Assembly (NCBI RefSeq): GCF_016903815.1
Contig: NZ_CP069973.1
DNA from: Escherichia coli
Lineage (GTDB): Bacteria; Pseudomonadota; Gammaproteobacteria; Enterobacterales; Enterobacteriaceae
Reading direction: 5' to 3' (one strand)
Length of the DNA: 64,000 nucleotides
The translations under genes and the position numbers were made by a program. Of the stretch, positions 53,001-64,000 are shown piece after piece (position 1 is the first letter of the stretch; every line of letters begins with the position of its first letter). The notes under the pieces were generated by a model. It did no database searches. It saw nothing but the letters and a program-made list of their open reading frames with translations, and was not told the DNA's origin.

Positions 53001-54178
53001 AACGGGTATGGCGGCGTGAACGGGACCTGACGGGCTGGATGTCGCTGTCATGGAAACCGGAAGTGCCCTGGTACGGCTGGGACGGCGACCGGCTGACCAC
53101 AATACAGAACGACAGAACCCGCATCCAGACGGTTTATCAGCCGGGGAGCTTCACGCCACTCATCAGAGTTGAAACTGCCACCGGTGAGCTGGCGAAAACG
53201 CAGCGCCGCAGCCTGGCGGATGCGCTTCAGCAGTCCGGCGGTGAAGACGGTGGCAGTGTGGTGTTCCCGCCGGTGCTGGTGCAGATGCTCGACCGGCTGG
53301 AAAGTGAAATCCTGGCTGACCGGGTGAGTGAGGAAAGCCGCCGCTGGCTGGCATCGTGCGGCCTGACGGTGGAGCAGATACAAAACCAGATGGACCCGGT
53401 GTACACGCCGGCGCGAAAAATCCACCTGTACCACTGCGACCATCGCGGCCTGCCGCTGGCGCTTGTCAGCACGGAAGGGGCAACAGAATGGTGCGCAGAA
53501 TACGATGAATGGGGCAACCTGCTGAATGAAGAGAACCCGCATCAGCTGCAGCAGCTCATCCGCCTGCCGGGTCAGCAGTATGATGAGGAGTCCGGCCTGT
53601 ATTACAACCGCCACCGCTATTATGACCCGCTGCAGGGGCGGTATATCACTCAGGATCCGATTGGGCTGAAGGGGGGATGGAATTTTTATCAGTATCCGTT
53701 GAATCCGATCTCAAATATAGATCCATTAGGATTATATGAATTTAAATCAAAAAATATAGATGATATTGGAATATTTGCATTGGCAATGTGTAATGGAGAA
53801 TCAATTAACGAGAATAAAGAATATGGTGGGCTAATATGTAAGAAGCAAGGTGAATATTTCCCCATGAATCCGATAAGTTCAAATGATAATGATAGTGTAG
53901 ACTTGCGAAATATAAAATGCCCTGAAGGTTCAGAGAGAGTAGGCGATTATCACACTCACGGTTTTTACTCTGACGATAAAGGCAATAAAGTAACAAAAGA
54001 AAATGATGTTTATGATAGTCTAAATTTTTCAAGCAAAGATTTAACGAATTCTTATATGAATGGAATGGGAAAAAAAGAATACAGTAGTTACTTGGGAACA
54101 CCAAATAACACCTATCTAAAATATAATCCCAAAGCTAAAGGGAATGGAGTTACAATTATCAGGCAAGGGAGTAATTAA
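50006..54178 (+). CDS. Rhs-family polymorphic toxin (1390 aa): RhsA-like N-terminus, YD-repeat core, AT-rich C-terminal toxin tip
   Basis: N-terminus [17 protein letters not shown]...; many YD/RYxYD repeats; core-end motif [27 protein letters not shown] near aa 1243; composition switch near 53690. Confidence 0.9.
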
Positions 54179-54179
54179 A

Positions 54180-54503
54180 ATGAAGGTAATACAATGTTGT
54201 TATTTCCTTGCTTTAGTCTCCAGTCATTTAATGGCTGGAGTTATGAGTGATGACAATATATTTTTAAGTAATTCGGATTTAGCTGCTTTATATTGTGTGG
54301 CTAAAATATTTCCAGATGGAGAAAATATTTTAATATATAAAGTAAATATAATTAATGCTAGTTCAAAAAAAGATGTATTTTTTTATGAAAGCCCAACATC
54401 AACCCACAATGACATAATGGGGGGCGGGGGAATGTCATATGCCTATGAATATGATGTAAAATATAATATATGTCATTTGAGAAAAAAGAGCAGAATGAGG
54501 TAA
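54180..54503 (+). CDS. putative cognate immunity protein (107 aa from MKVIQCCYFLALVSS...)
   Basis: ATG 1 nt after the rhs TAA (TAAaATG); GGGAG SD inside the rhs 3' end; same AT-rich composition as the toxin tip. Confidence 0.5.
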   Translation: MKVIQCCYFLALVSSHLMAGVMSDDNIFLSNSDLAALYCVAKIFPDGENILIYKVNIINASSKKDVFFYESPTSTHNDIMGGGGMSYAYEYDVKYNICHLRKKSRMR

Positions 54504-54759
54504 AAATCTTTGGCTGTGTATTCAGTCTGGTAATCATCCAAGGAAAGCTCATCAGAAGGGTGATGACTCCAATTAGTAGAACATATATTTTCGATAAAAG
54601 CACCGATGACTTTTTCATGAAGTTCTACAGAACGCGAGAAACAGATGGTTCTGCGGGCCAGACGTTTGATTCGGGTTCTCAGGGGCAGATTGTTACGCTC
54701 AATGGGTGATGCTGCCAACTTACTGATTTAGTGTATGATGGTGTTTTTGAGGTGCTCCA

Positions 54760-55035
54760 GTGGCTTCTGTTTCTATCAGCTGTCCCTCCTGTTCAGCTAC
54801 TGACGGGGTGGTGCGTAACGGCAAAAGCACCGCCGGACATCAGCGCTATCTCTGCTCTCACTGCCGTAAAACATGGCAACTGCAGTTCACTTACACCGCT
54901 TCTCAACCCGGTACGCACCAGAAAATCATTGATATGGCCATGAATGGCGTTGGATGCCGGGCAACCGCCCGCATTATGGGCGTTGGCCTCAACACGATTT
55001 TCCGCCATTTAAAAAACTCAGGCCGCAGTCGGTAA
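54760..55035 (+). CDS. insA: IS1 InsA
   Basis: 91-aa [25 protein letters not shown]... Confidence 0.92.
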
Positions 55036-55457
55036 CCTCGCGCATACAGCCGGGCAGTGACGTCATCGTCTGCGCGGAAATGGACGAACAGTGGGGATAC
55101 GTCGGGGCTAAATCGCGCCAGCGCTGGCTGTTTTACGCGTATGACAGGCTCCGGAAGACGGTTGTTGCGCACGTATTCGGTGAACGCACTATGGCGACGC
55201 TGGGGCGTCTTATGAGCCTGCTGTCACCCTTTGACGTGGTGATATGGATGACGGATGGCTGGCCGCTGTATGAATCCCGCCTGAAGGGAAAGCTGCACGT
55301 AATCAGCAAGCGATATACGCAGCGAATTGAGCGGCATAACCTGAATCTGAGGCAGCACCTGGCACGGCTGGGACGGAAGTCGCTGTCGTTCTCAAAATCG
55401 GTGGAGCTGCATGACAAAGTCATCGGGCATTATCTGAACATAAAACACTATCAATAA
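54954..55457 (+). CDS. insB: IS1 InsB reading frame (expressed as InsAB' by frameshift)
   Basis: 167-aa ORF overlapping insA in the -1 frame. Confidence 0.9.
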
Positions 55458-56186
55458 GTTGGAGTCATTACCCGCTCAATGTGCTGAGTAAAAATCTTAC
55501 CAGTCAGATGCTTCTCCTTTGGTAACTCTCTAGCGTAACTACCCCATTCGTCAGTGGTCAACATGCCGATGGTAAAAGGGTAAGCAGCGCCAGCAGTTCA
55601 CGACAGGTTTCATCAGTCCGGGGGCCAAAAGTGTAGGCCAGAACACCACCAGTTTTCGTGTTGTACACGTACCAGAGCCAGTGCTGTCGCGCTTTACTGC
55701 CGACAAAGCTCCATTGCTGACTAAGTTCGCAGATGAGTGCCACATCAGCATGAGCGACCGGGGATGACGTTATTTTTCGTGGCGAGAGTTTTTTAAAGTT
55801 CGGATGACTGTATTAATGCCAATTTTCAGCGTACGGGCAGTATAGCGAACCCCGGCACCGTTGAAAGCCATTTCAGCGATTTGGTCTTTAACTCCTGGTT
55901 TACGGGGCTCGTAACAGTAACTGAGCTGAAATACCCGGTGACAGTCACGGCCGCGGAATCGATCATGTCTTTTGGGGTTCTGCCCGTGACGGTAAACCTG
56001 AACGGACTGGCAACGGGGACAATGAAGGTTAACTGTGACCATGAAACAACCTTAAAAGCGAGTATTATATCCTTAATTCAACTAATTGGAGGCATCACCG
56101 TTTACCGGAGCGACAGCTTGCGGAAAGGTCGTGCAACTACAAAGCAACAAACAGACTACGGCGGGAATTATTTTTTTTATCATCCA

Positions 56187-56795: not shown

Positions 56796-56854
56796 CGTTA
56801 AACGTCCATGTATAAAAAAAGCGGCAGGTTAACTCCGCGCCGCTCTTTTCCGCT

Positions 56855-57172
56855 TTAGTATTCCCACGTCTCCGGGTTAATCCCCATCTCACGCATGATC
56901 TCTTTTGCCGCTTCCGGGATTTCGTCGCTGCGCTCTTTACGCAGATCGGCATCATCCGGCAAAGGTTGCCCGGTAAAGGCATGCAGAAACGCTTCGCACA
57001 GCAGCTCGCTGTTGGTAGCGTGACGCAGGTTGTTCACCTGACGACGCGTGCGTTCATCGGTGAGGATTTTTAACACCTTAAGAGGAATGGAAACCGTAAT
57101 CTTTTTGACTTGTTCACTCTTCTTGCCGTGCTCAGCGTATGGGCTGATATATTCGCCGCTCCATTCAGCCAT
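56855..57172 (-). CDS. metJ: methionine repressor MetJ
   Basis: 105 aa from [41 protein letters not shown]; track ORF over-extends. Confidence 0.95.
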
Positions 57173-57361
57173 GAGATACTTAATCCTCTTCGTCAATAAA
57201 TTGAGACCAGACCACACAGTTAGTGTGGGTACTGACCGTAAACCCGCATAGTTTACCGTACAGGCGTTACCGTGACATCGTGTAATGCACCTGTCGGCGT
57301 GATAATGCATATAATTTTAACGGCTATTTGGGATTTGCTCAATCTATACGCAAAGAAGTTT

Positions 57362-57385
57362 AGATGTCCAGATGTATTGACGTCC
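57362..57385. promoter_or_regulatory. tandem MetJ boxes in the metJ/metB divergent control region
   Basis: Contiguous 8-bp units AGATGTCC AGATGTAT TGACGTCC resembling the AGACGTCT consensus. Confidence 0.7.
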
Positions 57386-57448
57386 ATTAACACAATGTTT
57401 ACTCTGGTGCCTGACATTTCACCGACCAAGCCCAGGGAACTTCATCAC

Positions 57449-58609
57449 ATGACGCGTAAACAGGCCACCATCGCAGTGCGTAGCGGGTTAAATGACGACG
57501 AACAGTATGGTTGCGTTGTCCCACCGATCCATCTTTCCAGCACCTATAACTTTACCGGATTTAATGAACCGCGCGCGCATGATTACTCGCGTCGTGGCAA
57601 CCCAACGCGCGATGTGGTTCAGCGTGCGCTGGCAGAACTGGAAGGCGGTGCCGGTGCCGTACTTACTAATACCGGCATGTCCGCGATTCACCTGGTAACG
57701 ACCGTCTTTTTGAAACCGGGCGATCTGCTGGTTGCGCCGCACGACTGCTATGGCGGCAGCTATCGCCTGTTCGACAGCCTGGCTAAACGTGGTTGCTATC
57801 GCGTGTTGTTTGTTGATCAAGGCGATGAACAGGCATTACGGGCAGCGCTGGCAGAAAAACCCAAACTGGTACTGGTAGAAAGCCCAAGTAATCCATTGTT
57901 ACGCGTCGTGGATATTGCGAAAATCTGCCATCTGGCAAGGGAAGTCGGGGCGGTGAGCGTGGTGGATAACACCTTCTTAAGCCCGGCATTACAAAATCCG
58001 CTGGCATTAGGTGCCGATCTGGTGTTGCATTCATGTACGAAATATCTGAACGGTCACTCAGACGTGGTGGCCGGCGTGGTGATTGCTAAAGACCCGGACG
58101 TTGTCACTGAACTTGCCTGGTGGGCAAACAATATTGGCGTGACGGGCGGCGCGTTTGACAGCTATCTGCTGCTACGCGGGTTGCGAACACTGGTGCCGCG
58201 TATGGAGCTGGCGCAGCGCAACGCGCAGGCGATTGTGAAATATCTGCAAACCCAGCCGTTGGTGAAAAAACTGTATCACCCGTCGCTGCCAGAAAATCAG
58301 GGGCATGAAATTGCCGCGCGCCAGCAAAAAGGCTTTGGCGCAATGTTGAGTTTTGAACTGGATGGCGATGAGCAGACGCTGCGTCGTTTCCTGGGCGGGC
58401 TGTCGTTGTTTACGCTGGCGGAATCATTAGGGGGAGTGGAAAGTTTAATCTCTCACGCCGCAACCATGACACATGCAGGCATGGCACCAGAAGCGCGTGC
58501 TGCCGCCGGGATCTCCGAGACGCTGCTGCGTATCTCCACCGGTATTGAAGATGGCGAAGATTTAATTGCTGACCTGGAAAATGGCTTCCGGGCTGCAAAC
58601 AAGGGGTAA
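57449..58609 (+). CDS. metB: cystathionine gamma-synthase
   Basis: 386 aa from MTRKQATIAVRSGLNDDEQYG; track ORF over-extends. Confidence 0.95.
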   Translation: MTRKQATIAVRSGLNDDEQYGCVVPPIHLSSTYNFTGFNEPRAHDYSRRGNPTRDVVQRALAELEGGAGAVLTNTGMSAIHLVTTVFLKPGDLLVAPHDCYGGSYRLFDSLAKRGCYRVLFVDQGDEQALRAALAEKPKLVLVESPSNPLLRVVDIAKICHLAREVGAVSVVDNTFLSPALQNPLALGADLVLHSCTKYLNGHSDVVAGVVIAKDPDVVTELAWWANNIGVTGGAFDSYLLLRGLRTLVPRMELAQRNAQAIVKYLQTQPLVKKLYHPSLPENQGHEIAARQQKGFGAMLSFELDGDEQTLRRFLGGLSLFTLAESLGGVESLISHAATMTHAGMAPEARAAAGISETLLRISTGIEDGEDLIADLENGFRAANKG

Positions 58610-58611
58610 AA

Positions 58612-61044
58612 ATGAGTGTGATTGCGCAGGCAGGGGCGAAAGGTCGTCAACTGCATAAATTTGGTGGCAGTAGTCTGGCTGATGTGAAGTGTTATTTGCG
58701 TGTCGCGGGCATTATGGCGGAGTACTCTCAGCCTGACGATATGATGGTGGTTTCCGCCGCCGGTAGCACCACTAACCAGTTGATTAACTGGTTGAAACTA
58801 AGTCAGACCGATCGTCTCTCTGCGCATCAGGTTCAACAAACGCTGCGTCGCTATCAGTGCGATCTGATTAGCGGCCTGCTACCCGCCGAAGAAGCCGATA
58901 GCCTCATTAGTGCCTTTATCAGCGATCTTGAGCGCCTGGCGGCGCTGCTCGACAGCGGTATTAACGACGCGGTGTATGCGGAAGTGGTGGGCCACGGCGA
59001 AGTGTGGTCGGCGCGCCTGATGTCTGCGGTACTTAATCAACAAGGGCTGCCAGCGGCCTGGCTTGATGCTCGCGAGTTTTTACGCGCTGAACGCGCTGCG
59101 CAACCGCAGGTTGATGAAGGGCTTTCTTACCCGTTGCTGCAACAGCTACTGGTACAACATCCAGGCAAACGTCTGGTGGTGACCGGGTTTATCAGCCGTA
59201 ACAACGCCGGTGAAACGGTGCTGCTGGGGCGTAACGGTTCCGACTATTCCGCGACACAAATCGGTGCGCTGGCGGGAGTTTCCCGCGTAACCATCTGGAG
59301 CGACGTCGCCGGGGTATACAGCGCCGACCCGCGTAAAGTGAAAGATGCCTGCCTGCTGCCGTTGCTGCGTCTGGATGAGGCCAGCGAACTGGCGCGTCTG
59401 GCGGCTCCCGTTCTTCACGCCCGTACTTTACAGCCAGTTTCTGGCAGCGAAATCGACCTGCAACTGCGCTGTAGCTACACGCCGGATCAAGGTTCCACGC
59501 GCATTGAACGCGTGCTGGCCTCCGGTACTGGTGCGCGTATTGTCACCAGCCATGATGATGTCTGCTTGATTGAGTTTCAGGTGCCCGCCAGCCAGGATTT
59601 CAAACTGGCGCATAAAGAGATCGACCAGATCCTGAAACGTGCTCAGGTGCGCCCACTGGCGGTTGGCGTGCATAACGATCGCCAGTTGCTGCAATTTTGC
59701 TACACCTCAGAAGTGGCCGACAGTGCGCTGAAAATCCTCGACGAAGAGGGATTACCTGGCGAACTGCGCCTGCGTCAGGGGCTGGCGCTGGTGGCGATGG
59801 TTGGGGCGGGTGTCACCCGTAACCCGCTGCATTGCCACCGCTTCTGGCAGCAACTGAAAGGCCAGCCGGTCGAATTTACCTGGCAGTCCGATGACGGCAT
59901 CAGCCTGGTGGCAGTACTGCGCACCGGACCAACCGAAAGCCTGATTCAGGGGCTGCATCAGTCCGTCTTCCGCGCAGAAAAACGCATCGGCCTGGTATTG
60001 TTCGGCAAGGGCAATATCGGTTCCCGCTGGCTGGAACTGTTCGCCCGTGAGCAGAGCACGCTTTCGGCGCGTACCGGCTTTGAATTTGTGCTGGCAGGCG
60101 TGGTGGACAGCCGCCGCAGCCTGTTGAGCTATGACGGGCTGGACGCCAGCCGCGCGTTAGCCTTCTTCAACGATGAAGCGGTCGAGCAGGATGAAGAGTC
60201 GCTGTTCCTGTGGATGCGCGCCCATCCGTATGATGATTTAGTGGTGTTGGACGTTACCGCCAGCCAGCAGCTTGCTGATCAGTATCTCGATTTTGCCAGC
60301 CACGGTTTCCACGTCATCAGCGCCAACAAACTGGCGGGAGCGAGCGACAGCAATAAATATCGCCAGATCCACGACGCCTTCGAAAAAACCGGGCGTCACT
60401 GGCTGTACAACGCCACCGTCGGTGCGGGCTTGCCGATCAACCATACCGTGCGCGATCTGATCGACAGCGGCGATACTATTTTGTCGATCAGTGGGATCTT
60501 CTCCGGCACGCTCTCCTGGCTGTTCCTGCAATTCGACGGTAGCGTGCCGTTTACCGAGCTGGTGGATCAGGCGTGGCAGCAGGGCTTAACCGAGCCTGAT
60601 CCGCGTGATGACCTTTCCGGCAAAGACGTGATGCGCAAGCTGGTGATTCTGGCGCGTGAAGCGGGTTACGACATCGAACCAGATCAGGTGCGCGTGGAAT
60701 CGCTGGTGCCTGCCCATTGCGAAGGCGGTAGCATCGACCATTTCTTTGAAAACGGCGATGAACTTAACGAGCAGATGGTGCAACGACTGGAAGCGGCCCG
60801 CGAAATGGGGCTGGTGCTGCGCTATGTGGCGCGTTTCGATGCCAATGGCAAAGCGCGTGTGGGCGTGGAAGCGGTGCGTGAAGACCATCCGCTGGCATCA
60901 CTGCTGCCGTGCGATAACGTCTTTGCCATCGAAAGCCGCTGGTATCGCGATAACCCTCTGGTGATCCGTGGGCCTGGCGCGGGGCGCGACGTCACCGCAG
61001 GGGCGATTCAGTCGGATATTAACCGCCTGGCGCAGTTGTTGTAA
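58612..61044 (+). CDS. metL: bifunctional aspartokinase II / homoserine dehydrogenase II
   Basis: 810-aa ORF immediately after metB; recognised. Confidence 0.95.
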   Translation: MSVIAQAGAKGRQLHKFGGSSLADVKCYLRVAGIMAEYSQPDDMMVVSAAGSTTNQLINWLKLSQTDRLSAHQVQQTLRRYQCDLISGLLPAEEADSLISAFISDLERLAALLDSGINDAVYAEVVGHGEVWSARLMSAVLNQQGLPAAWLDAREFLRAERAAQPQVDEGLSYPLLQQLLVQHPGKRLVVTGFISRNNAGETVLLGRNGSDYSATQIGALAGVSRVTIWSDVAGVYSADPRKVKDACLLPLLRLDEASELARLAAPVLHARTLQPVSGSEIDLQLRCSYTPDQGSTRIERVLASGTGARIVTSHDDVCLIEFQVPASQDFKLAHKEIDQILKRAQVRPLAVGVHNDRQLLQFCYTSEVADSALKILDEEGLPGELRLRQGLALVAMVGAGVTRNPLHCHRFWQQLKGQPVEFTWQSDDGISLVAVLRTGPTESLIQGLHQSVFRAEKRIGLVLFGKGNIGSRWLELFAREQSTLSARTGFEFVLAGVVDSRRSLLSYDGLDASRALAFFNDEAVEQDEESLFLWMRAHPYDDLVVLDVTASQQLADQYLDFASHGFHVISANKLAGASDSNKYRQIHDAFEKTGRHWLYNATVGAGLPINHTVRDLIDSGDTILSISGIFSGTLSWLFLQFDGSVPFTELVDQAWQQGLTEPDPRDDLSGKDVMRKLVILAREAGYDIEPDQVRVESLVPAHCEGGSIDHFFENGDELNEQMVQRLEAAREMGLVLRYVARFDANGKARVGVEAVREDHPLASLLPCDNVFAIESRWYRDNPLVIRGPGAGRDVTAGAIQSDINRLAQLL

Positions 61045-62138
61045 TCCTGAGCCAGAGAAAGCAGTATTTGCGTAACGCGCCCTGCGGAAAGCGGGGCGCT
61101 GTGAGTAAATACTGCTTGTTTATGTAGCCAGTCGATAAAATGTCTGCTGGTTGCTAAAGAGAGCATTTCTGCTTTGCTGTTATTTCCGCCCGTTAATGCA
61201 CATACCATTTTACGATTTTTGCCCTGAACCCAGAGTTGCCACTGATTTTTCCACCAGCCGTGATAAGTTGTTCCCTGAAAACGCCAGGGCATATTATCGG
61301 TATCGTCAGCTATTTCCTCTTCAATAAACCAAATCTCACCTTGCTGTTGGCGAAACAGATCAGCCCATGCCGTAATAATGGCACCTCTTAAAAAACACTC
61401 GTGTGAAATTACATGTGTTTTTACTGTAGGGAATAAAATATTCAGTACTCTGAAATGCCCGTGTGCAGTGATAACCGGACGCAGAATAACACCTTTAGCA
61501 TTGCGTTTGAGCGCTGCGCTGCCATATTGAATCTCATCAAACTGACTGCGGCGTAGAAATTGTGCTTCGCGCATATCAACGCGTTGTACAATATTACTCT
61601 CGTGTAACTCTGGTTCTGCATTCCCTCTGTATCGATAATGCAGACTTTCTCCAGCCTGATGCTGCGTGTAATTAGTAGAAAGATGAAGAATATTACCGCG
61701 AAGAGCATCAAAACTGATTAAAACATACAGTTTCTGCCCGCCGCTGGCTCCCTGAAATGGCACCAGAAGAGCAACCGTTTCGATTATTTCAGGAGGCGTT
61801 ATTTCTTTCTGATATTGTTTAGGTGTCCAGACTTTTTTGCAGTTACGACATTGAATGCGTTGCGACCCCTGTGGATTGTGGCCATAACAAATCGTCTTTG
61901 TGCCATAACATACCGGGCAGAAATGACCTTTCTCAGTTGCAAAAGTAGATAAGTGAACTGACAACCAGTCACGAAATTGCTGTTCGTCAAACAACGGCGG
62001 GTAACTTCCACATGCCCGACAGTGCAGTGCCGGATAACCCAGTCGATAGTCTGGCCAGCTGTAATCTGTCGATGTTGGTTGCCCTAAATTACGACAACCA
62101 AACGACTTGCAGGCATTAATCGTAAACAGAGTCGACAT
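61008..62138 (-). CDS. hypothetical Zn-ribbon protein (376 aa), possibly transposase-derived; 3' end overlaps metL by 37 nt
   Basis: Long ORF; N-terminal CxxxxC...HCxxC and CPVC...CRNC motifs loosely resembling IS1595-type transposase zinc ribbons; rest unrecognised. Confidence 0.45.
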   Translation of the reverse strand: MSTLFTINACKSFGCRNLGQPTSTDYSWPDYRLGYPALHCRACGSYPPLFDEQQFRDWLSVHLSTFATEKGHFCPVCYGTKTICYGHNPQGSQRIQCRNCKKVWTPKQYQKEITPPEIIETVALLVPFQGASGGQKLYVLISFDALRGNILHLSTNYTQHQAGESLHYRYRGNAEPELHESNIVQRVDMREAQFLRRSQFDEIQYGSAALKRNAKGVILRPVITAHGHFRVLNILFPTVKTHVISHECFLRGAIITAWADLFRQQQGEIWFIEEEIADDTDNMPWRFQGTTYHGWWKNQWQLWVQGKNRKMVCALTGGNNSKAEMLSLATSRHFIDWLHKQAVFTHSAPLSAGRVTQILLSLAQDYNNCARRLISD

Positions 62139-62270
62139 ATATCACCAACGATTTCACAAGGTCGTTGATTTTGTCCGGCAACTATCCCCTGCGGATGTGA
62201 TTACTCTCACATAAATAACTCTTTCAGAACGTAATGTAGCAATCCTTTAAATCACTGAAAGGGACTATTT

Positions 62271-63824
62271 ATGAAAATTAAAATACTTGCTGCGGGTATC
62301 GCATTAACATTGCCGTTCTGGGCTTGCGCCAAAGATGTCACCATCATTTATACCAACGACCTCCATGCGCATGTCGAGCCTTATAAAGTGCCGTGGATCG
62401 CTGATGGTAAACGGGATATTGGCGGCTGGGCAAATATCACTACGCTGGTTAAGCAAGAAAAAGCAAAAAATAAAGCGACATGGTTTTTTGATGCGGGTGA
62501 TTATTTTACCGGGCCATATATCAGCAGCCTGACCAAAGGTAAGGCTATTATCGATATTATGAATACTATGCCGTTTGATGCCGTCACGATAGGCAACCAT
62601 GAATTTGACCACGGCTGGGACAACACATTATTACAGTTGAGTCAGGCAAAATTCCCTATTGTGCAGGGCAATGTTTTTTATCAGAACAGCAGTAAATCAT
62701 TCTGGGATAAGCCATATACCATCATCGAAAAAGACGGTGTGAAAATAGGCGTTATAGGTTTGCACGGTGTATTTGCCTTTAATGACACGGTATCTGCGGC
62801 AACGCGAGTGGGGATTGAAGCGCGTGATGAAATTAAATGGCTACAACGTTATATCGATGAACTTAAAGGCAAGGTTGATTTGACCGTCGCCCTGATCCAT
62901 GAAGGTGTTCCGGCCCGCCAGTCCAGTATGGGAGGCACAGATGTGCGTCGCGCGCTGGATAAAGATATTCAGACGGCAAGTCAGGTGAAAGGGCTGGATA
63001 TTTTGATCACCGGACATGCGCATGTGGGTACGCCGGAACCGATTAAAGTCGGCAATACGCTCATCCTCTCCACTGACAGCGGCGGGATTGATGTGGGCAA
63101 ACTGGTTCTCGACTACAAAGAGAAGCCGCATGATTTTACGGTGAAAAACTTCGAGCTTAAAACCATTTACGCCGACGAGTGGAAGCCCGATCCGCAAACA
63201 AAACAGGTGATCGACGGCTGGAATAAAAAGCTTGATGAAGTGGTGCAACAAACGGTCGCGAAATCGCCGGTTGAATTAAAACGTGCCTATGGTGAATCGG
63301 CTTCCCTCGGGAACCTGGCGGCTGATGCTTTACTGGTAGCGGCGGGTAAAAACACCCAATTGGCGTTAACCAACTCTGGCGGCATTCGCAATGAGATCCC
63401 CGCAGGGGCGATTACGATGGGCGGCGTCATCAGTACCTTCCCGTTTCCCAACGAACTGGTGACGATGGATCTCACGGGTAAACAATTACGCAGTTTGATG
63501 GAACACGGCGCAAGTTTAAGTAATGGCGTTTTACAGGTATCGAAAGGCCTGGAAATGAAGTACGACAGCAGTAAGCCGGTTGGTCAGCGGGTAATCACGC
63601 TGACTCTGAATGGCAAACCGATTGAAGATGCGACGATTTACCACATTGCTACTCAGAGTTTCCTTGCTGATGGTGGAGATGGTTTTACCGCCTTTACCGA
63701 AGGGAAAGCGCGTAACACAACGGGCGGTTATTACGTTTATCACGCCGTGGTTGATTACTTCAAAGCGGGTAACACCATCACGGATGAACAGATCAACGGT
63801 ATGCGCGTGAAAGATATCAAGTAA
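62271..63824 (+). CDS. secreted bifunctional metallophosphatase / 5'-nucleotidase family protein (UshA-like)
   Basis: Signal peptide [20 protein letters not shown]; calcineurin-like motifs DLHAH, GDYF, GNHEFD, GHAH; 5'-nucleotidase-like C-terminal half. Confidence 0.75.
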
Positions 63825-63900: not shown

Positions 63901-64000
63901 CAGGCCGAATCAGATGCCTTAGCATCACCATCCGGTGGCAGGACGTTGTTTTTCGAATAAGCCCAGGTGTCGCTGTGTTGTCAGAATATCAGTCAAAACG

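Follow-up and report, generated by a model that had tools for sequence, protein, structure and literature searches.

The metJ/metB operator is among the best-studied bacterial operators and has served as a paradigm of cooperative binding to tandem sites and of DNA recognition by beta-ribbons (ribbon-helix-helix). At metB, five boxes are reportedly counted in some older reviews, and the classical literature on the met regulon is said to have been reviewed by Old et al. in 1991. In the complex 1CMA, one MetJ homodimer is bound per 8-bp box, with its beta-ribbon inserted into the major groove (Somers & Phillips 1992, as summarised in PMC2775130). Adjacent MetJ dimers touch each other, which leads to cooperative binding; at least two adjacent boxes are required for repression, and SAM increases the affinity of MetJ for DNA several-fold (PMC2775130, PMC3228920, PMC4239095). 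The known E. coli operators have been examined by lacZ and gel-shift tests, and the metJ/BL boxes were among the 'known metboxes' used for training of the published metbox model (PMC3228920). Three promoters have been described for metJ in the literature, and in one paper the weak repression of this gene (about half) was ascribed to one constitutive promoter of the three (PMC3228920).

Operators of the same repressor and co-repressor are located at metA, metC, metE/metR, metF, metK, metNIQ, mmuPM and ybdH/mtnE, where tandem in-register 8-bp AGACGTCT-like boxes are likewise found near the start of methionine genes. The metJ/metB site differs from these other E. coli MetJ operators in several respects. 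It is common to the repressor's own gene, and its boxes overlap a −35 element, whereas those of metF reportedly overlap a −10 element. It also has the highest score: the other sites contain 2–4 boxes with 15–28 bits (PMC3228920, Table S1), although metF has five boxes according to other papers, whereas no other K-12 site of the same table reaches the total of the metB/metJ site, which scores 31.2 bits with 4 boxes. The sequence of this K-12 site, agaagtttagatgtccagatgtattgacgtcc, is listed there for b3939 metB with a gap of 63, and its reverse complement for b3938 metJ with a gap of 181.

Here, we analyzed a stretch of 64 kb of an E. coli chromosome (hereafter the window), in which MetJ, MetB and MetL are all intact and yiiX is located downstream of metJ (Pfam). 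The metJ gene (56855..57172, minus strand; 105 aa plus stop) encodes the met regulon repressor, as supported by its ORF, Pfam, PDB and RefSeq. The predicted protein matched PF01340 MetJ with E = 7.6e-60 and the met-repressor chains 1cma/1cmb/1cmc of PDB over 104 residues with E = 1.4e-67, and the position of the gene agrees with the RefSeq annotation in both strain 7/2 and K-12. Thus, by PF01340 and the match to PDB 1cma, the cognate repressor is encoded in the same genome as the box array described below. In the opposite direction, metB (57449..58609, plus strand) encodes cystathionine gamma-synthase (386 aa plus stop; PF01053, E = 1.8e-145; RefSeq annotation in strain 7/2) and is the first gene of the metBL operon. 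The second gene of this operon, metL (58612..61044, plus strand), encodes aspartokinase II / homoserine dehydrogenase II (Pfam AA_kinase, NAD_binding_3 and Homoserine_dh) and starts 2 nt past the metB stop. The metJ start codon appears as CAT on the plus strand (57170..57172) and the metB ATG is at 57449, which leaves an intergenic region of 57173..57448 between the divergent genes. This is exactly the span that the first-pass annotation, made from the sequence letters, had given for a set of MetJ-box units between divergent metJ and metB. A side observation concerns metB itself: in the K-12 MG1655 record NZ_CP010439.1 it is annotated as a frameshifted pseudogene, whereas the metB of the window is intact, and the frameshift is probably a sequencing or assembly error of that record.

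Four 8-bp boxes, which are contiguous, in register and arranged head-to-tail, are present in this intergenic region at 57354..57385 (32 nt). Each of them agrees with AGACGTCT at 6/8 positions. By the published metbox weight matrix, box 1 (AGAAGTTT, 57354..57361) scores 6.78 bits, box 2 (AGATGTCC, 57362..57369) 8.96 bits, box 3 (AGATGTAT, 57370..57377) 8.57 bits and box 4 (TGACGTCC, 57378..57385) 6.87 bits. Their conservation, calculated as the mean fraction of 81 Enterobacterales sequences that share the base of the window, is 0.91, 0.96, 0.97 and 0.89, respectively. The earlier description of three 8-bp units at 57362..57385 was right in coordinates and in consensus match (6/8 each), whereas its count fell short: these units are boxes 2–4 of four, and the fourth contiguous in-register unit, AGAAGTTT at 57354..57361, had been overlooked. 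In general, a met-box array consists of at least two contiguous in-register 8-bp AGACGTCT-like repeats and is located in the promoter region of a gene for methionine biosynthesis or transport, typically ~75 nt or less from the start codon. These features are found at 57354..57385, which contains four boxes and ends 63 nt from the metB ATG; the distance to the metJ ATG is 181 nt. When the metbox matrix and thresholds of Augustus & Spicer 2011 (PMC3228920, Table 3) were applied, i.e., a quarter of the consensus score or more for every box and a sum above the consensus box score of 12.58, this array was the sole passing site in the 64-kb window, with 4 boxes and 31.18 bits.

The first-pass annotation had named its own test, namely an alignment with the known metB operator, in which a failure of the units to align would refute the claim. 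This alignment gave an exact match, and the claim was not refuted: positions 57354..57385 are the same 32-mer as the K-12 entry, with the same score and the same gaps. The similarity to the K-12 metJ/metBL operator extends to the flanks, the start-codon distances and the gene order yiiX–metJ / metB–metL. Only 3 differences from K-12 MG1655 were found in 277 nt (57222, 57223 and 57427), all of them outside the boxes, and the identical span 57224..57426 takes in all boxes and promoter elements. The intergenic region as a whole is 100% identical to that of strain 7/2 and 98.9% identical to that of K-12 MG1655, and is present once in 5425 of the 5426 complete E. coli genomes. Judged by its sequence, 57354..57385 is the known E. 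coli metJ/metBL operator, which has already been described and is not novel. We consider, with a probability of about 0.97, that it is an operator shared by two divergent transcription units, metJ and metBL, and no observation contradicts this. The value of this assignment lies in correct annotation: it confirms that the window comes from an E. coli chromosome whose met regulon control region is intact, and the site may be used as a positive control for motif-based reading.

To place the array in a wider context, we sampled 80 Enterobacterales loci by a MetJ search of genome contigs. The sampled genera include Citrobacter, Enterobacter, Klebsiella, Raoultella, Kluyvera, Buttiauxella, Pantoea and Erwinia, as well as Serratia, Pectobacterium, Photorhabdus, Providencia, Hafnia, Budvicia and Sodalis. 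The metJ and metB genes are divergent in all 80 loci and are separated by 185–443 nt. In every locus (80/80), a single metbox site passes the thresholds, and this site is homologous to the array of the window. Four boxes were found in 75 loci, five in 2 and six in 3, and the array ends 42–66 nt upstream of the metB ATG. The orthologous arrays resemble that of the window in their distance to the metB ATG; they also keep the same register relative to the hexamer TTGACG. Differences are observed in the sequence and number of boxes. In most other genera, box 4 is TGACGTCT, a better box than the TGACGTCC of E. coli. Box 1 varies between genera as AGAAGTTT, AGACATTT (the form in Pantoea and Erwinia) or AGAGGTTT, and these substitutions are met-box-compatible. 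Providencia has 5–6 boxes and Budvicia 5, compared with 4 in the E. coli window. In an alignment of 81 distinct intergenic sequences, which we used as a footprint, per-base conservation peaked at 57335..57385, with values of 0.89–0.97 in the boxes, 0.30–0.56 in most of the metJ leader and 0.24 in the stretch before the metB ATG.

Within E. coli, a 75-nt core (57336..57410) is identical in 4122 of 5424 genomes and carries 1–3 base differences in 1301. Two such variants were sampled, in which the only change of the core was A57391 to C, located in the metB promoter spacer and touching no box; both genomes also differ near 57432..57435, outside the core. A single genome among the 5424, that of strain 035152 (NZ_CP101705.1), contains an exact 8-bp in-register insertion together with a C-to-T change, resulting in the five-box array AGAAGTTT AGATGTCT AGATGTCT AGATGTAT TGACGTCC.

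The conserved region also contains promoter-like hexamers for both genes. On the metB side, a putative −35 hexamer TTGACG (57377..57382, plus strand) is followed, after a 17-nt spacer, by a putative −10 hexamer TACTCT (57400..57405, plus strand). Each base of TTGACG is 100% conserved among the 81 sequences, as are T57400 and T57405, and A57401 is 99% conserved. The pattern TTGACG-N16–18-TAnnnT is present in 81/81 intergenic sequences, with a spacer of 17 nt in 65, 16 nt in 15 and 18 nt in 1. The −10 hexamer is weak (3/6 to TATAAT) and falls under the cut-off of a generic promoter scan. TTGACG/TACTCT most likely represents the metB promoter, with an estimated start near 57412.

On the metJ side, the outermost promoter-like site (57341..57370, minus strand; promoter scan 9/12) consists of a −35 TGGACA (57370..57365), an 18-nt spacer and a −10 TAGATT (57346..57341). 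The TGGACA/TAGATT pattern is present in 57 of the 81 loci, and we infer that the site corresponds to PmetJ1. A second promoter-like site, TTGAGC-17-TAAAAT (57314..57342, minus strand), was detected by the promoter scan and coincides with a conserved block at 57311..57328. The hexamers TTGAGC/TAAAAT are listed for the metJ/metB spacer in a genomic SELEX table of RpoD holoenzyme (PMC3946193). The promoter nearest to the gene, PmetJ3, is represented by the −10-like TAAACT (57250..57255, minus strand), which is conserved within Enterobacteriaceae and was located with the help of the CRISPRi protospacers GCCTGTACGGTAAACTATGC and ACCCGCATAGTTTACCGTAC, reported to overlap the −10 of PmetJ3 (PMC5240198). 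In our own reading of the sequence, these protospacers map to 57246..57265 and 57242..57261, respectively.

Comparison of the two sets of features revealed that the metB −35 is overlapped by box 4, that the outermost metJ −35 is located inside boxes 2–3, and that metJ promoter-like sites thus either overlap or adjoin the array. The first-pass annotation had described an operator upstream of metB, which is correct in position and incomplete in scope, as the array also overlaps the outermost metJ promoter. The array thus appears to be shared by metB and metJ, so that it would serve metJ autoregulation too. Taken as a whole, the comparative data trace a clean footprint of a shared divergent control region, in which ~160 nt accommodate four boxes, the promoter of metB and as many as three promoters of metJ.

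Three other explanations were weighed against the shared operator. One is that the 8-mers reflect chance likeness to a short degenerate consensus in AT-rich intergenic DNA. Some statistics are compatible with this view: single AGACGTCT boxes with no more than one mismatch are not enriched (12 observed in the window vs 14.8 expected in shuffles), about half of the shuffled windows contain a 2–3-box site above the published thresholds, and 2 of 300 dinucleotide-shuffled versions of the 64-kb window equalled the score of boxes 2–4 against (AGACGTCT)x3 (18/24 positions). However, none of the 12 single-box matches is in the operator because each operator box has 2 mismatches, and the single-box scan is uninformative; the array statistic alone discriminates. 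For boxes 1–4, the agreement with four copies of AGACGTCT (24/32 positions) was reached in 0/300 dinucleotide shuffles, the highest shuffle value being 23. With the published matrix, the best site in 500 dinucleotide shuffles scored 25.7 bits and never had more than 3 boxes, so that 0/500 reached 4 boxes or 31 bits. Moreover, the array is the top match in the window for (AGACGTCT)n at each n = 2–5, lies at the expected metJ–metB place, is identical to the published operator and is conserved in all of the loci sampled. Because of the shuffles and this conservation, chance can be regarded as excluded, with a practically negligible probability. Tandem Repeats Finder and a generic direct-repeat finder did not report the array, because its units are too divergent from one another; it is seen only as a motif match. 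A second candidate in the window, AGGTGTCCAGACTTTT at 61821..61836 (11/16), is located within a 376-aa ORF (61008..62138) downstream of metL and fails the matrix thresholds, and was rejected.

Another explanation is that the overlapping divergent promoters (metB −35 and metJ −35/−10) account for the conservation by themselves, the 8-bp periodicity being incidental and no repressor being bound. The presence of the metB −35 inside box 4 and of a metJ −35 inside boxes 2–3 is in line with this idea, and the conserved block runs further to the left (57311..57353) over promoter sequence without scoring boxes. On the other hand, conservation is 91–97% in box 1 and most of boxes 2–3, although these parts would then belong to promoter spacer or to DNA upstream. 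The substitutions between genera, such as those among the three forms of box 1, remain met-box-compatible; the Providencia array expands in 8-bp register; and an exact 8-bp in-register duplication occurs in one E. coli genome. Gel shift and MetJ-dependent repression have also been published for the known E. coli operators (PMC3228920). Promoter conservation without MetJ binding is therefore very unlikely. Less probable still is that the region is under some other control, such as a MetR activator site, a leader RNA or riboswitch, or a small RNA. The metJ leader is long (roughly 70–160 nt, as estimated from the promoter-like sites) and contains a near-palindrome at 57235..57259 (ACCGTAAAC / GTTTACCGT with a 7-nt gap), both of which might favor such control. 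But no Rfam match at E <= 1 was found on either strand of 56800..57700, no MetR-type TGAA-N5-TTCA site with up to one mismatch is present within 57173..57448, and the leader is the least conserved part of the region. The right arm of the near-palindrome contains the PmetJ3 −10 TAAACT, and an RNA hairpin at this place was rejected because the left arm is unconserved in other genera.

With a shared operator as the preferred reading, the following mechanism could be proposed. When methionine, and hence SAM, is abundant, up to four MetJ dimers would assemble over ~32 bp. The covered stretch would take in both the metB −35 (TTGACG, 57377..57382) and the outermost metJ −35 (TGGACA, 57370..57365), and RNA polymerase would be shut out, leading to repression of metBL and partial repression of metJ. 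The gene-proximal metJ promoter, whose −10 (57250..57255) is ~100 nt from the boxes, would escape repression, and this distance would explain the weak autoregulation of metJ. SAM-dependent cooperative binding of MetJ and repression in vivo have been published for the known E. coli operators, and would be expected by analogy in this strain, which has the same DNA and protein.

Directly to the left of box 1, we noticed a degenerate flanking unit, ATACGCAA (box −1, 57346..57353), which matches the consensus at 4/8 positions and scores −0.88 bits. This unit is below the published metbox threshold, yet each of its bases is 84–100% conserved among the 81 sequences, with a central CG that is 100% conserved. 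In Providencia (AAACGTAA) and Budvicia (ACACGTCA), its homologue counts as a scoring box. The unit could represent a weak fifth MetJ site or, alternatively, owe its conservation to the metJ promoters of which it is part. That it acts as a functional, cooperativity-dependent fifth MetJ site, with a box number that is naturally tunable, is a tentative idea that we regard as rather doubtful; tunability is suggested by the 8-bp in-register five-box allele of strain 035152. If the idea is true, occupancy would continue through box −1 in the direction of the second metJ promoter (TTGAGC −35, 57342..57337).

The wider neighborhood of the operator differs from that of K-12 on both sides. Between rpmE and yiiX, i.e., upstream of yiiX, the window contains, at 50006..56042, an RHS element (core protein ORF at 50006..54178) and IS1 sequence that are not found at this place in K-12. 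Within this segment, an extra 768 nt and a 9-nt duplication (54705..55472) distinguish the window from the otherwise near-identical strain 7/2; the extra sequence resembles a second IS1 that landed within the first. On the other side, two genes that are absent from this place in K-12 are located between metL and metF (61008..63824). One is the 376-aa ORF mentioned above (61008..62138, minus strand), which is without a Pfam match and overlaps the 3′ end of metL by 37 nt, and the other encodes a 517-aa metallophosphatase/5′-nucleotidase (62271..63824). Because these two genes are inserted after metL, the start of metF falls past base 64000, and the offset from strain 7/2 places metF, together with its MetJ operator, just past the end of the window.
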